This document shows positions 19,930-63,587 of a stretch of 64,000 bases of DNA, in pieces; the first letter of the stretch is position 1, and each line of letters opens with the position of its first letter. The notes under the pieces are model-generated. The model was not told where the DNA came from and searched no databases. It saw only the letters and a list, made by a program, of their open reading frames with translations. The DNA lies in contig MU057840.1 in the NCBI GenBank assembly GCA_013265495.1, positions 1 to 64,000 of the forward strand, written 5' to 3'. This DNA comes from Vicugna vicugna. Lineage: Eukaryota. The position numbers and the translations under genes were made by a program.

Positions 19930-20795
19930 AGCAAAGCCGGCCGCGGAAAACGCAGGCGAGGGGGGCAAACAAGATGATTTCGGGGCTGTGCACACACGCC
20001 GCTGCCGACCGCTTTCCAGACCACGGCCCCGCCGCGAGCTTCTCAGGACTTACTGGCTTCCCAGTCGGACGTCAAGGGAAAGCCGCGCGGGGAGCACCCG
20101 GGGGTCGGGGCCCTGTTACGGTCCTCGGAGTCCCTGAGTGCCCGGGTCCCGGCCTCCACCTCCCACCCCCTCGCCACTCCCCTACTCAACGCGCCCAGCG
20201 AGGGCCGGCCCGGGAAGCGCCACGAGTAACGCCCCAGCGCGAGCCGCCTGGCTCCGCCCGAGACCCCCGGTGCGCGGACGGCGGGGCAATCCTGCTGGGG
20301 TCGGGGCCGGGCTCGCGGTTGGGGTCGCGGGTCCGGGGCCTACGCCGCAGCTGCGCCCGCCGATGCCGGACGGGGGAACGCGCGGGCGGGCGCGGCCGGC
20401 AGGCGGGGCGCGGACACTCACCACAGGACGCCGGGGGAGCCCTCGCCGGTGTAGCAGGTTGCTGGAGCGCCGCCCACGTCGAACACCTGCCCACGCACCA
20501 TCTCGGGGCCGCACCGCCGCCGCCGCCGCGCTGGACAAGAAGCTCCGCGGCCGCCGCTCGGCCAACACCGCGCCTCCCGGAGGGACTGCGCTGCCGCCGC
20601 CGCCGCCGCTGGCCGGAGGGAGCAAGGCCGGCGGGAGCAAGGCCGGCGCGGCTCGCGAGAACCGCAGAACCGCCAGCTGCTCCGACATGCTGCCGCCTGA
20701 CCGCCTGGCAAACTGACCTTAGGGTGGGTGGAGGGAGGGGCGGGGCCAGGAAGCGTGCACTCGGATTGGCTCTCGTGTCCCTGGGGGCGGGTCTG
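19930..20795. promoter_or_regulatory. CpG island and MAPK1-derived promoter (GC boxes, CCAAT, ETS-like GGAAG)
   Basis: Very high GC and CpG density; gggcgggg at about 20738, gggcgggt at about 20786, caggaagcg at about 20747, attgg at about 20766. Confidence 0.85.
20422..20745 (-). pseudogene. MAPK1: Degenerate MAPK1 (ERK2) exon 1 with 5' UTR; native ATG deleted
   Basis: Minus strand encodes EMVRGQVFDVG...YTGEG...G followed by TG|gtgagt, matching the end of ERK2 exon 1. Upstream blocks GCCCCTCCCTCC, GCGCAGTCCCT-CGGGAGG and GAGCGGCGGCCGC match the recalled MAPK1 5' UTR. Confidence 0.88.
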
Positions 20796-20863
20796 GTGTC
20801 CCTACAGATTTGTAACCTTTTTGCCTATTAGGATTAATTCTGCTGTGAATATTTGTATACAAG

Positions 20864-21454
20864 TTTTTTTTTTACACCAAAATTGTTCATTGTAATTTTA
20901 TTTGAACTTAATAGAAGAAAAAAACTAAAACAAAACTGGAGAAATTACTGCATTTCAAATGAATGTATCTTTGTGATGGGAAATCAGTAAGTAAATAAAA
21001 TTATGAAATGCATTAAGAGGTTGTGAAATAAATTAAAGACATTATGTATTTTCTAAATTCTGTATTTCCAATTTAGAAATTATCTATTGAGTCTGTTTTG
21101 AAAAGTTAACAGATTCTCTTCTACCACTGTTCTCCCCAACTCAAATTTTGAATAGTTATATATTTTAAAAACATTGTTCATGCTTCCAATATTTCAAGTA
21201 TAGTTGGTGACTATAATTCCTATGGTTTCTAAACATGTTTCAAATTTAGAACACATTCACAATTTAAAGTTAAAATAACAGAATGCTGTACATTGAGAAG
21301 TTTCACTTCCACCCTTACGACACCTTAGTTCCCCTACCATCATTAGATAACTACTTCGTTTCTTATATGGTATTTCCAATGTTTCAGATACAAGCAAAAA
21401 TGAAAATATACCTTATTTTCCACTTTTCTCACAATTATGCATTATATCATAAGG
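20864..21454 (-). mobile_element. Retroposed polyadenylated transcript fragment (processed 3' end or orphan transduction) with TSD
   Basis: Poly(T) at 20864-20873; AATAAA on the minus strand about 22 nt before the tail; flanking direct repeat ttctgctgtgaa(t/c)atttgtatacaag at 20838-20863 and 21455-21480. Confidence 0.7.
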
Positions 21455-23459
21455 TTCTGCTGTGAACATTTGTATACAAGCTTTTGTGGGGAAATATGTT
21501 TTCATTTCTCATAGCTGTATACCTGAGATTGTCATGGCTGGGTTTTGATTCTTGAAGTAACGAGAGGGCAAAGTTTACTTATTGAAGATTGCCTCCCTGC
21601 AGGAGGAAGACTGGCCTTCCTCAAGACTTCATGGGCACTGACCGCAGCCAAGGCACACATGTGTCAAGGCTGGTAAGTGCTACTCATTGACTCAGCCATG
21701 GGTCTGCTGAGCATTACAGCGGCAACCACAGCTTGTGCCAGCCCTGACCAGCAGGAGAGAGGCTGGTGCTTCCCTCATCTGGAGTGCTCCCCTCATCTGG
21801 AATGCTCATCCCGTGGAGAAGCTGGACCTGGGGCCTGCGTGTCACAGTGCTGGTTCCAGTCCCTGCCTACACTGGGCCTGGGCTTCTCTGATAATACCGT
21901 ATAAAGCATCTGCCTGCTTCTCCAATTCTCAGGGCAGTGGTTTGCCCTGCGACCTCAGTTCTCTGATGGGTCTAGGAAGAGTTGTTTCTTTTCGGTCTGT
22001 TCATCTTTTCTTGTTTTGAGGATGGGAGGGATGACTTCCAAGCTCCTCGTACCCTAGACTAGAAACCAGAAGCGTATGATTTCTGTTAGTTTCTTCTCAC
22101 CTCCGTAGCTTGTCTGTGTTTGACTTTGGCAATGAGCACTAGCAGCCCATGCCAGCGCACCATTTGGGAGGGCAGGGAGTCCCTGAAGACAGACCTTTCT
22201 AGTCCCTCTCCCTGCCGGTGACTTCAGTGGCAGTCGAGGCCCCACTCCCAGGCTCACTGGCCTCCTTCTGTCCTCTGCTTAGCCCTTTCGCTCCACCCCT
22301 ACCTTAGTCTCTCTGTAGTGGGCATCTGGGGTTTGCTCTTGGGACAGGTTAGAGTAAGCCTTCCCCAGGTGATGAGGGAAAGTCAGACAGAGTAACAGGC
22401 ATCTGGGTACAACATGCAGGAGTGAGAAGGACAAAGACGTTCAAGTTCTCTCAAGAGATATCAAGTTTTCAATTTCTGTTCCACTGCTTCCTATATCATC
22501 TCTGAAAAGCTACTTAAAACCTACTAGGCTTCAGTTTATCTTAAAAAAAACATTAAACCAGGATAATAATACTAAGCACTAAGATGGTTTCAGGCAATGG
22601 GGAAACTGGGCTGGAGCTGAAGTTTGGTCAGTGTGTTGTGCAGATGAGATATATATTGGGATCCCTTGGTTAGAGGTCAGAGCATACAAGATGGGCAGAG
22701 AATCACCTAACTTCAGGAATAGGGTATATGAAGGCCAGGCCCCCGGTGCACGGCCAGCCCAGGTCTGCTGTGGTTGGGTGCAGAATAGGAGTTTAGGGCC
22801 AGTGGAATAGCTACTACTGCAGCTGAACTGCCTGAGCTCCCCCGATCCAGTGGAGAGCGTGGGTGAACAAATGTCATCTCAGTAATTCACTGACATCCAG
22901 GGCCTGAGCAACCCAGCCTGAGACCCCTATAACTGAGTTTACCATCAAGGGAGGGAATGTTTGTCTTCCCCCTTCCAGAAACAGCTGAGCTCTTAAGGAC
23001 CGATGCTGCTGGTGGGCACACAGCTAGGCGTAATGGTACCTCAGTGGTAGAGCTGCAACTAGAGAGATGGCCAGAGATAGGACTGCTGGCAATGCCTAGA
23101 TGGGTGTGGATGCTGGGAAACCACTTTCTTGAGGCCTCCCAAGATTATCTTGCAAAGGGAGTTCCTGCGCACATTCCTGCTCAAGCCGGTGAGATCCCAC
23201 TGTCAATGTGCACGTGAGTCCATTTGTGCCCACCTGCCAGTGAGGGTCAAGGACACCTGGGCAATGCCAGGATTGGAAAGAATTTGCACTGAATTGTTTG
23301 AATGTCATCTGGTCAATATTGGATATATGCTAAATGGGGACTCTGCCACATAATCATGGTTTCTAAGGGCTGGGACAAGTGCACTGAGGCCTCCTGGGAT
23401 CCTGTCTTATTGTTTGTGTATATGTGTACACACACACACACATACATACACACATATAT

Positions 23460-24208
23460 TATTGAAGGATAGTAAGTTCACAATGTGTGTCAATTTCTGG
23501 TGCATAGCACAATGCTTCACTCATATATGAACATACGTGTATTTGTTTTCATATTCTGTTTCATCATAAGTTACTGCAATGTATTGGATATAGTTCCCTG
23601 CGAGATACAGCATGAACTTGTTTATCTTTTCTATACGTATCAGTTAGTATCTGCAAATCTCTATCAGAAAAGGAAAGTAAAGAAACAATCCCTTTTAAAA
23701 TTGCATTCAAAAAAATAAAATATTTAGCAATAAACCTGACCAAGGAAGTGAAAGACATATGTGGAGAAGCACAAAACACTGACTAAGGAAATTAAATATG
23801 ACCGAAAGAAATGGAAAGACATCCCATGTTCTTAGATTCAAAGAATTAATATTAAGATGGCCATACTACACAAAGCAATCTACAGTTTTAAAATCCCATT
23901 CATATTAAATTACCCAGGACACTTTTCACAGAACTAGAATAAATTATACTAAAATTTAAATGGAATCACAAAAGACCCAGAATTGCCAAAGCAATACTGA
24001 AGAAAAAGAACGAAGCTGTAGAAATGACTCGCAGACTTCAGACATTCCTATAGAGCTACAGTCATCAAGACAGCATGGTATTGGTACAAAACCAGACATA
24101 TGGATCAATGGAACAGAAGAGAGAGCCCAGAAATAAATCCACAAACTTTTGGTCAATTAATCTTTGACAAATGAGTCAAATACATACAGTGGAGTAAAGA
24201 CAGTCTTT
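23460..24208. mobile_element. Minus-strand L1 3' tail joined head-to-head to a plus-strand L1 ORF2 piece
   Basis: Orientation switch at about 23660 (…atctgcaaatctc|tatcagaaaaggaaag…). Confidence 0.7.
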
Positions 24209-24644
24209 CTCAGGCAGTCTGTGAAGTTATTCTCTACTTTTAATAAGCTATATAATCAGGGAGAATCTTTATGAGAAGCTGGATCATCTACATAAAATAC
24301 TTCAGTGTTGGAAGAGGCTTTCTTCTCTTTTTAAGGCATGGCGGACTATGGAATTTTAAAAGTATTTAACACTGTAGACGGAAGAGAGGGTGCATGAAGG
24401 GCAACCAAGGGCACGAAAAAATTTTTAATGACTTTCCTAAGAAGAAATAGATTGTTCCTAGAGAGATTCACCAAGTAACTTGATGGAATGAATGAGAAAA
24501 CTGCACTTATCTTACCAGAATGAAGAAATTCAGCGTATAGTAAATGTTACTAGTCAAACCAGCGTTTTGTTTTGGACCAAAAAGACAGTATTTGATTCTT
24601 GAAACTACCTACCTTACTAATGTACTAAATGAATATATTTAGTG

Positions 24645-63009: not shown

Positions 63010-63208
63010 CCAGGAGTCTGCAAGCTGTGGCCCACGGGACAAATCTGGCCCTGCACCAGTGAGCTTTTACATTTTTAAAGTGGCTTCTATATTTCTGAAG
63101 AGTTGTGTAAAACGGAGGGGCTGCTGAAGGGAGGAGACTGGATGTGGCATGCAAAGCTTAAAAAGATGTATTTAACCTGGCCTTTTACAGAAGTTTGCAG
63201 GCCTGTGC
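63010..63208. mobile_element. MER58-like DNA transposon fossil (another at about 5010-5192)
   Basis: caagctgtggcccacgggacaaatctggcc...ctggccttttacagaagtttgc. Confidence 0.6.
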
Positions 63209-63239
63209 TCAACCCTATTCGAGAAGCAACAGGAACCAA

Positions 63240-63450
63240 ATAATAATAACAGCTAACAGTTATTAGCTGCCAGGCACTGTTCTAAGCACTTTGTACAAAT
63301 TGTGTAATAGCTTCCCAACCACCCTGTGAGGTTCACTACTATCCCCCATTCCACTGATGAGAAAAGCAAGGCACAGGGAGCTGGGGTACCTGCCCCAAGT
63401 TCCTAGAGTTAGTGGCAGAGACAGGATCGGAACCCACTGCCTTTGCTCCT
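63240..63450. mobile_element. MIR (others at about 35230-35440 and 54890-55050)
   Basis: ccaggcactgttctaagcacttt...caaccaccctgtgagg...cctgccccaagttcc. Confidence 0.7.
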
Positions 63451-63504
63451 AACCGTTCCACTCGAAACTGATGTCAGGTACTTAGGCTCTGGCTGTAACA
63501 TTAC

Positions 63505-63587
63505 CTGAGGGACTGAAGGATGGCATTCATGAAACACGTGTTCCCCAAATTCCGCAGGCCTGTGGCACAGATGGCAGTGGTGCTTCC
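63505..63587 (-). CDS. USP3: USP3 exon with catalytic Cys box (GSTTAICATGLRNLGNTCFMNAILQSL)
   Basis: ttttacag acceptor, gtaatg donor, 83 nt, open frame with GLxNLGNTCFMN motif. Confidence 0.95.

Follow-up and report, generated by a model that had tools for sequence, protein, structure and literature searches.

Intron-containing pieces of USP3, COL12A1 and MAPK1 in a probably old, camelid-wide segmental-duplication patchwork of Vicugna vicugna

How pieces of three genes that lie on different chromosomes in human (USP3 on 15, COL12A1 on 6 and MAPK1 on 22) come to stand on one strand of a single short contig is the question raised by the stretch of Vicugna vicugna DNA considered here. This stretch, referred to as the window, comprises bases 1-64000 of contig C917 (MU057840.1; 120,330 bp) in assembly GCA_013265495.1, which totals 2.03 Gb in 12,405 contigs, and its 64,000 nucleotides contain no undetermined base (N). 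A first-pass annotation had seen in it minus-strand fragments of the three genes, each damaged and none complete, and had proposed that they were DNA-level copies stitched together in a duplication hub that could give rise to chimeric genes. All three pieces were identified on that strand where they had been placed, each of them carries the lesions described below, and the window holds no complete copy of any of the three genes.

The locus is read here, with a probability of roughly 0.8, as an old segmental-duplication patchwork common to camelids, built by serial DNA-level copying from unrelated loci into a duplication-prone region. The USP3 exons were mapped by tblastn, and duplicon blocks by blastn together with a whole-genome DNA search of the assembly contigs. 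As this search scores only about 40 candidates per query, the copy counts given below are lower bounds. When C917:64001-74000 was used as a 10-kb query, nothing but dispersed repeats came back. The search missed the self match as well as two true multi-kb matches, which were then recovered by blastn and a narrower query; because true matches were missed in this way, absences from the whole-genome search are weak.

USP3 and COL12A1 pieces, their parental loci and their joint

The USP3 duplicon lies on the minus strand at 48914-64000 and extends past the window to at least C917:74000. Comparison by tblastn with full-length USP3 (P0014, 520 amino acids, aa) placed in it, with their introns, six minus-strand exons that cover aa149-365, namely aa149-177 at 63593-63507, aa178-216 at 62271-62155, aa217-254 at 59752-59639, aa254-303 at 57459-57310, aa304-338 at 54384-54280 and aa339-365 at 54115-54035, and all six are open. 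The name comes from a protein match of E 3e-12, and among the matches listed the names given by the source are USP3, generic ubiquitin hydrolase or uncharacterised. The copy stops after aa365 of 520, short of a complete UCH domain with its C-terminal His box. Its parent was found at C10625:1325691-1347938 (plus strand), where the exons of aa124-365 are open and the gene is intact where examined. The duplicon is collinear with C10625:1325691-1342641 and with C11260:36243-54151, its introns following the parent over blastn segments of 6906 bp and 4485 bp with more than 15 kb retained, and the parent and C11260 are the only copies of this block that the whole-genome search found. The lesion of the USP3 piece is an 11-bp deletion at 54270-54290 (minus strand), by which the 5' splice site of exon aa304-338 is lost in the window copy only: in a three-way alignment both C10625 and C11260 have TAGGTAAGGCA at this splice donor and the window is without TAGGTAAGGCA.

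The COL12A1 duplicon occupies 38776-48886 on the minus strand, 38776 being the end of the compared parental sequence and not a mapped edge. Seven FN3-coding exon remnants were located in it, with introns between them, at 47633-47547, 47000-46905, 45429-45280, 44568-44437, 42529-42392, 41445-41350 and 38939-38803, all on the minus strand, and two of the remnants contain in-frame stops. A further COL12A1-like FN3 exon remnant (38421-38347, minus strand) sits in a separate multi-copy block at 34500-38685. The gene name follows from matches to collagen alpha-1(XII) of Marmota (E 1.9e-17) and to a VWA/FN3 protein of Camelus ferus (E 9e-22). At the parental locus, C4851:5527103-5537519 (plus strand), the exons are 96-98% identical to the Camelus ferus protein and the gene is again intact where examined. 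Window positions 48886-38776 are collinear, introns included, with C4851:5537519-5527103 at 82.7-85.4% identity in segments of 4335 bp and 6073 bp, that is over more than 10 kb. Other copies of the block were found on C11260 (92%), C621 (82-83%), C6951 (82-85%) and, with an internal deletion, C586. The copy on C6951 follows the parent past the breakpoint of the window copy, which indicates serial copying, the window piece probably being a secondary copy. Between the last COL12A1 remnant and the joint described next, a tRNA-like match of 43.6 bits is found at 47761-47832 (plus strand), presumably the head of a tRNA-derived short interspersed element (SINE).

Both pieces are therefore intron-containing copies well over 1 kb in length and collinear with a parent elsewhere in the genome (USP3 with C10625 and COL12A1 with C4851), which is what is expected of segmental duplications and which bears out the earlier proposal that the copying took place at the DNA level and not by retroposition.

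The two duplicons meet at a microsatellite. COL12A1 homology stops at 48886 and USP3 homology begins at 48914, with GGA-rich microsatellite in between, and a purine-rich array (GGAGGAGGGGGA)n was found at 48886-48927 by Tandem Repeats Finder (TRF). At the parental USP3 locus, an L1-like element has its poly-T end about 35-50 bp away from the corresponding breakpoint. The joint is borne in identical layout by a second contig, C11260 (133,674 bp): window positions 25923-64000 are collinear with C11260:13498-54151, and the collinearity continues to C11260:64392 against C917:64001-74000, with blastn identities of 88.3-90.7% in the window and 89.6-91.6% over the part beyond it. Since these two independently assembled copies differ by about 10%, the joint is not one shared misjoin, and this comparison argues that the COL12A1/USP3 joint is not a misassembly.

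The region is also represented in genomic sequencing runs. Sampled words of 48001-58000 are present at 0.68-0.79 in 14 rows of genomic runs (DNA or unlabelled) from 7 studies and under three organism labels. The copy is widespread among individuals, one of these runs being possibly the source of the assembly itself.

Parent-like tracts and chimeric gene models

The identity between the USP3 duplicon and its parent is uneven. From 49.8 to 60.1 kb the window is about 92% identical to C10625, and a tract of 99.4-99.7% identity, delimited by blastn and three-way site patterns, then runs from about 60150 to the end of the window and on to a point between C917:65495 and 66300. Within it, 60150-64000 is 99.7% identical to the parent (13 differing columns in 3851 bp, as compared with 56 in the preceding 632 bp) and C917:64001-65495 is 99.4% identical (9 differing columns in 1.5 kb, including a 5-bp deletion), after which identity to parental USP3 is 94% over C917:66300-69300. 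To the right of 60150, window and parent agree with each other against C11260 at 361 sites, the two remaining pairings being seen at 11 and 4 sites; to the left, the three site patterns count 382, 347 and 220 and their proportions shift from bin to bin. We read this as a recent interlocus conversion tract of about 5.5-6 kb, covering the Cys-box exons, which would lie over older, patchy exchange.

Two smaller features of the same duplicon were noted. The 161 bp around exon aa339-365 (54035-54195) are 100% identical to the parent within the region of about 92%, and are probably a short older conversion patch. Beyond the window, the 5-bp deletion at C917:64854 lies inside the 99.4% parent-like tract and shifts the frame of the USP3 exon of about aa122-152; the alpaca RefSeq model reads this exon intact, and the deletion may be a difference between species or individuals or an error of assembly.

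Gene models of other camelids contain the same fusion. The dromedary RefSeq 'USP3' isoforms X1-X3 (XP_064341582 and related; 322, 304 and 229 aa) have USP3 exons spliced to COL12A1-derived exons, and in the order of the window these exons correspond to 63593-63504, 62239-62141, 54112-54035, 46985-46887 and 38947-38819. The possibility that chimeric genes could arise here is thus realised at the level of predicted models. Because the dromedary models join exons in the order of the window, the fusion predates the split between Old and New World camelids. At the terminal exon the dromedary models share 95% identity with the window and only 77% with C11260, and from these values the window copy and C11260 would themselves have separated before the split of the Old World and New World lineages. 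Four consecutively numbered GenBank models from another dromedary assembly (KAB1264378-81) are also chimeric, which suggests several fusion copies in this second dromedary genome. In alpaca, USP3 isoforms X3 and X4 (XP_072818286 and XP_072818287) use USP3 exons of the window type (100%, 100% and 98% identity), the exon sets of the alpaca and dromedary models being different.

All of these fusion models are computational predictions. The zf-UBP finger is complete in the chimeric models and the UCH profile is covered over positions 1-39 (dromedary) and 1-109 (alpaca) of 254; the COL12A1-derived exons, which are translated in a frame other than their original one, add no domain that can be recognised, and in the Vicugna vicugna genome the reading frame of the dromedary terminal exon meets a stop. 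The fusion is thereby already contained in annotation pipelines, where it is labelled simply USP3. In a literature search that left supplements aside, no paper was found on a USP3-COL12A1 fusion, or on a MAPK1-island repeat, in camelids.

The MAPK1 piece and the surrounding patchwork

The third gene is present as a remnant of the coding part of MAPK1 exon 1 at about 20530-20422 (minus strand), whose sequence reads GPEMVRGQVFDVG, with a GT donor next to it at 20421-20420. When this remnant was searched against PDB, 52 of the 53 matches listed were named MAPK1/ERK2, the other being entry CSD101, with a best E of 1.3e-3; residues 85-127 of the remnant found no homologue among longer proteins at E up to 10. 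No methionine is in frame upstream of the PEMV motif, and substitution is heavy downstream of GPEMVRGQVFDVG in the alignment shown. The remnant lies in a CpG island from the 5' end of MAPK1 (19930-20800, minus strand; GC 75%, 117 CpGs, CpG observed/expected 0.96), and the island together with 2.7 kb on its upstream side makes up a duplicon block at 19453-23663 (minus strand). Partners of this block are C6650 (84% and 91%), C9927 (87-90%), C6845 (87%), C9394 (87%) and C2132 (91%), with a short match on C5862, and C6650 has the same degraded reading, GGAPA.CYTGEGSPGV, as the window.

The parent of this piece is placed by its first exon. A genome-wide search with a degenerate pattern for GQVFDVGPRYT found a single match, C2890:783758-783789 on the forward strand, and none on the reverse strand or in controls, and the parental MAPK1 locus on C2890 is known by this exon-1 motif only. 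Window positions 20379-20795 are 68% identical to C2890:783405-783872, the segment that holds the sole exact match to the pattern. Searches with window 20900-24500 and 20985-23655 for the parental MAPK1 upstream region returned only duplicon copies on six contigs and SINE and L1 sequences. The parental loci whose existence elsewhere had been anticipated were accordingly found on three other contigs, USP3 and COL12A1 being intact where examined and MAPK1 being recognised by its exon-1 motif only.

The core of the MAPK1 CpG island has at least 61 further matches on 27 other contigs. A CpG observed/expected ratio of 0.96 at 68% identity to the parent would be unexpected for a relic that had long been methylated. 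It was also observed that copies of the island recur at regular steps, of 584 bp on C11870 and about 725 bp on C10004, in a satellite-like arrangement built from a promoter island. The piece is a degenerated copy of MAPK1 exon 1 with its 5' CpG island, one of a family of dozens of which some form tandem arrays, with L1 fragments between it and the block shared with C11260. Along the window, L1 debris (about 11 kb) and then a multi-copy block of 4 kb separate it from the COL12A1 duplicon. MAPK1 is a separate duplicon and the weakest part of the three-gene claim: in the stitched mosaic that had been proposed, the USP3-COL12A1 joint is direct and is confirmed by C11260 and by the Camelus models, whereas the adjacency of MAPK1 is seen on C917 alone.

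The window as a whole holds at least seven blocks that differ in copy number, from 2 to more than 60 copies per block, and in partner contigs, in agreement with the description of the region as a duplication hub, and the three gene duplicons come from different loci, each with its own copy number (parents on C10625, C4851 and C2890). At 7023-8600 lies a 1.57-kb element of a high-copy amplicon, of which at least 38 other full-length copies were found at 85-94% identity, mostly on small contigs, the closest copy among the matches listed being C11260:117321-118885 (94%). A 2.6-kb element of the same amplicon family follows at 12613-15211; it has an internal inverted repeat of 280 bp, nearly all of the long matches among the roughly 40 candidates scored are at 78-82%, and many contigs carry both elements about 4.5 kb apart. 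At least ten contigs also have, at a distance of about 50 kb from the 2.6-kb element and in opposite orientation to it, a 470-bp element resembling window 39782-40249, which suggests that the repeat unit of this amplicon family, which has some 40 copies or more, is at least 50 kb long elsewhere in the genome. The open reading frame (ORF) at 12564-12977 had no usable match in Protein Atlas.

Next to these elements is a low-copy duplicon at 15473-18503 with two other copies (C10661:12813-15819 at 90% and C9958 at 88-89%). The interval between the MAPK1 block and the multi-copy block is filled by a plus-strand cluster of 3'-end fragments at 23662-34500, which we take to be L1 from ORF2-like peptides, Protein Atlas giving only a weak RVT_1 lead; the cluster has internal repeats at 23.7-24.2, 24.9-26.3, 28.6-30.5 and 31.6-33.3 kb and thousands of genome-wide candidates, and the homology to C11260 ends inside it, at 25923. 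The multi-copy block at 34500-38685 has at least six full-length copies at 79-81%, with C11260 at 85-86% and partial copies on C556, C6951, C621, C9305 and C5737. In window 1-38.9 kb, a Pfam scan of 109 ORFs with a length of 72 aa or more returned three sub-threshold chance matches and no further gene fragment. Outside the three-gene claim, a complete SNORA70-like H/ACA snoRNA copy stands at 767-901 on the plus strand (Rfam RF00156, 114.5 bits against a gathering threshold of 40, positions 1-135 of 135).

Competing explanations and what the locus means

The order of events that we infer for the patchwork would begin with a COL12A1 piece of about 10 kb that was copied several times and whose copies are now 82-86% identical to the parent. 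A USP3 piece with the 5' and middle exons, more than 25 kb long, would then have been joined to one of these copies at the GGA-rich microsatellite, and the joined block, together with neighbouring L1-rich DNA, would have been duplicated as a whole at least once, giving the copies of the window and of C11260 that are now about 90% identical. This duplication of the whole block is placed before the split of Old and New World camelids because the window copy resembles the dromedary gene models more closely than it resembles C11260. Interlocus gene conversion may since have continued between the USP3 copies and parental USP3, most recently in the tract of about 5.5-6 kb, and the promoter-side exons of USP3 could splice to COL12A1-derived exons to give a truncated protein with the zf-UBP finger and only the start of the catalytic domain.

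Several observations weigh against this reading. The adjacency of MAPK1 is confined to the C917 contig, and no MAPK1 block was found on C11260 in the 13.5 kb that precede the shared block, a stretch that includes a 3.4-kb run of N. Segmental duplications are conventionally defined by at least 90% identity; the values here are 88-92% between window and C11260, about 92% between USP3 and its parent (with the 99.6% tract), 82-86% between COL12A1 and its parent and 68% for the MAPK1 island, so that the COL12A1 pieces fall below the usual threshold. At 59518-59533 the window has an empty site for an L1 insert, 16 bases that blastn shows duplicated on either side of an insert in C10625 (2.9 kb) and in C11260 (3.3 kb), the alignment of these two contigs running into the insert. 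An insert common to the parent and C11260 conflicts with a simple tree, given the COL12A1 joint shared by window and C11260, and therefore either gene conversion carrying the insert or its precise loss is required. The junctions, finally, are known from assembled sequence and not from raw reads of the same genome, and the parent-like tract could instead be an assembler switching between paralogs.

These last points belong to the explanation by assembly artefact, in which C917 would be a chimeric contig with misjoins at the L1 cluster at 23.7-25.9 kb and at both ends of the 99.6% stretch. The small size of the contig in an assembly of 12,405 contigs, the restriction of the MAPK1 adjacency to it and a 99.4-99.7% stretch set between sequence of 92-94% identity, the pattern expected of a double path switch, all speak for such an origin. 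On the other hand, the window is free of N, the joint and the whole of 25.9-74 kb are repeated on a second contig at about 90%, and the exon order is matched by dromedary and alpaca RefSeq models. An assembler switch is disfavoured because the tract departs from the parental sequence and has a 5-bp deletion of its own at C917:64854, and its differences from C10625 (13 columns in 3.85 kb and 9 in 1.5 kb) fit a distinct locus better than a second use of identical reads; an artefact is on balance unlikely. The multi-copy, mosaic architecture on small unplaced contigs would also suit a Y-linked or otherwise sex-limited ampliconic block of transposed autosomal DNA, Y linkage being among the locations that the first-pass annotation had named as possible, but the contigs that bear the matching models measure 96.1 Mb in alpaca and 94.6 Mb in dromedary, as compared with a total of 8.22 Mb for the partial alpaca Y assembly, and this origin is very improbable. 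In the accessible part of the paper on the alpaca Y, no transposed sequences are reported and USP3, MAPK1 and COL12A1 do not occur, although the paper notes that such sequences may have been filtered out (PMC7830431). Capture mediated by retroelements, as a processed copy or an L1 transduction, has in its favour the abundance of L1 fragments in the window and the position of the USP3 parental breakpoint within about 50 bp of an L1-like poly-T end. It is hardly credible beside introns retained and collinear over more than 10 kb (COL12A1) and more than 15 kb (USP3) and block ends with neither a poly-A tail nor intron loss. Both a processed retrocopy and an L1 transduction were ruled out by the introns retained between all exons.

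Whether the fusion does anything is a question of its own. A camelid-specific fusion gene under selection, producing a USP3 with the zf-UBP finger alone that would act as a non-catalytic ubiquitin-binding regulator or decoy, would agree with the exon order conserved between the dromedary models and this genome, with the six open USP3 exons, with the complete zf-UBP of the dromedary models, with the Cys-box exons kept parent-like by gene conversion and with RNA runs that contain 0.17-0.26 of the sampled words of 48001-58000 (word sampling, not read alignment). Against it stand the deleted splice donor of exon aa304-338, the frameshifting 5-bp deletion in the upstream exon at C917:64854, the stop in the dromedary frame of the terminal exon, the differing exon sets of the alpaca and dromedary models, the purely computational nature of all models and the absence of any recognisable domain from the out-of-frame COL12A1 exons, and such a gene is doubtful. 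Because of the first four of these, the fusion is most likely non-functional, and its transcription a neutral by-product of the patchwork. A bolder proposal holds that this is a genuine fusion gene from before the camelid split, with Cys-box and zf-UBP exons kept parent-like by conversion and encoding a catalytically dead, ubiquitin-binding USP3, and that the adjoining MAPK1 island stayed unmethylated and may have seeded a promoter-bearing tandem repeat family; it is put forward here as a speculation of low probability.

The preferred reading, an old duplication patchwork, has a close parallel in the mosaic segmental-duplication blocks of primates, with their pericentromeric and subtelomeric duplication hubs, reportedly described by Bailey and Eichler in 2006. 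Shared with these blocks are juxtaposed duplicons with introns kept, serial copying, secondary duplication of the mosaic as a unit, breakpoints in simple or interspersed repeats, interlocus gene conversion and predicted fusion transcripts. The differences are the camelid lineage and a divergence that is much older, at 8-18%, and partly below the 90% convention. The suggestion of a lineage-specific hub needs the qualification that the block is common to camelids and, with such divergence, old rather than recent. Processed pseudogenes and retrocopies resemble the pieces in being non-functional copies away from the parent and differ from them in that here introns are kept and poly-A is missing, so that the locus is not a member of that class.

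Within the same animal group, the available part of a recent study describes pseudogene-rich repetitive blocks on alpaca chromosomes 11, 17 and 36, which it reads as segmental duplication followed by decay; their genes are NEK10, ATF5, FMN2, uS3m, ACTB and ABHD17A, and the blocks are reported absent from Camelus (PMC13751797). USP3 and MAPK1 have no occurrence in that part of the text, COL12A1 not having been among the names searched there (PMC13751797). The window has in common with those blocks multi-copy, fragmented, gene-derived sequences in repeat-rich DNA; one difference is that Camelus is reported to lack those blocks, as far as the available text describes them (PMC13751797), while dromedary models contain the USP3-COL12A1 fusion.

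For annotation, the truncated 'USP3' models of alpaca, dromedary and Bactrian camel come from duplicated copies, at least the dromedary ones being USP3-COL12A1 chimeras, and they are not to be taken for isoforms of the real gene. The locus also illustrates cleanly how a functional gene and its partial copies undergo interlocus conversion. The general understanding is unchanged, mosaic duplications of this sort being well known in mammals. For the camelids themselves, the locus is a further case beside the pseudogene-rich blocks of duplicated DNA newly reported from alpaca, as far as these are known from the available part of that study (PMC13751797), and, since unlike them it predates the split between camels and llamas, it is usable as a dated marker of duplication activity in the family.

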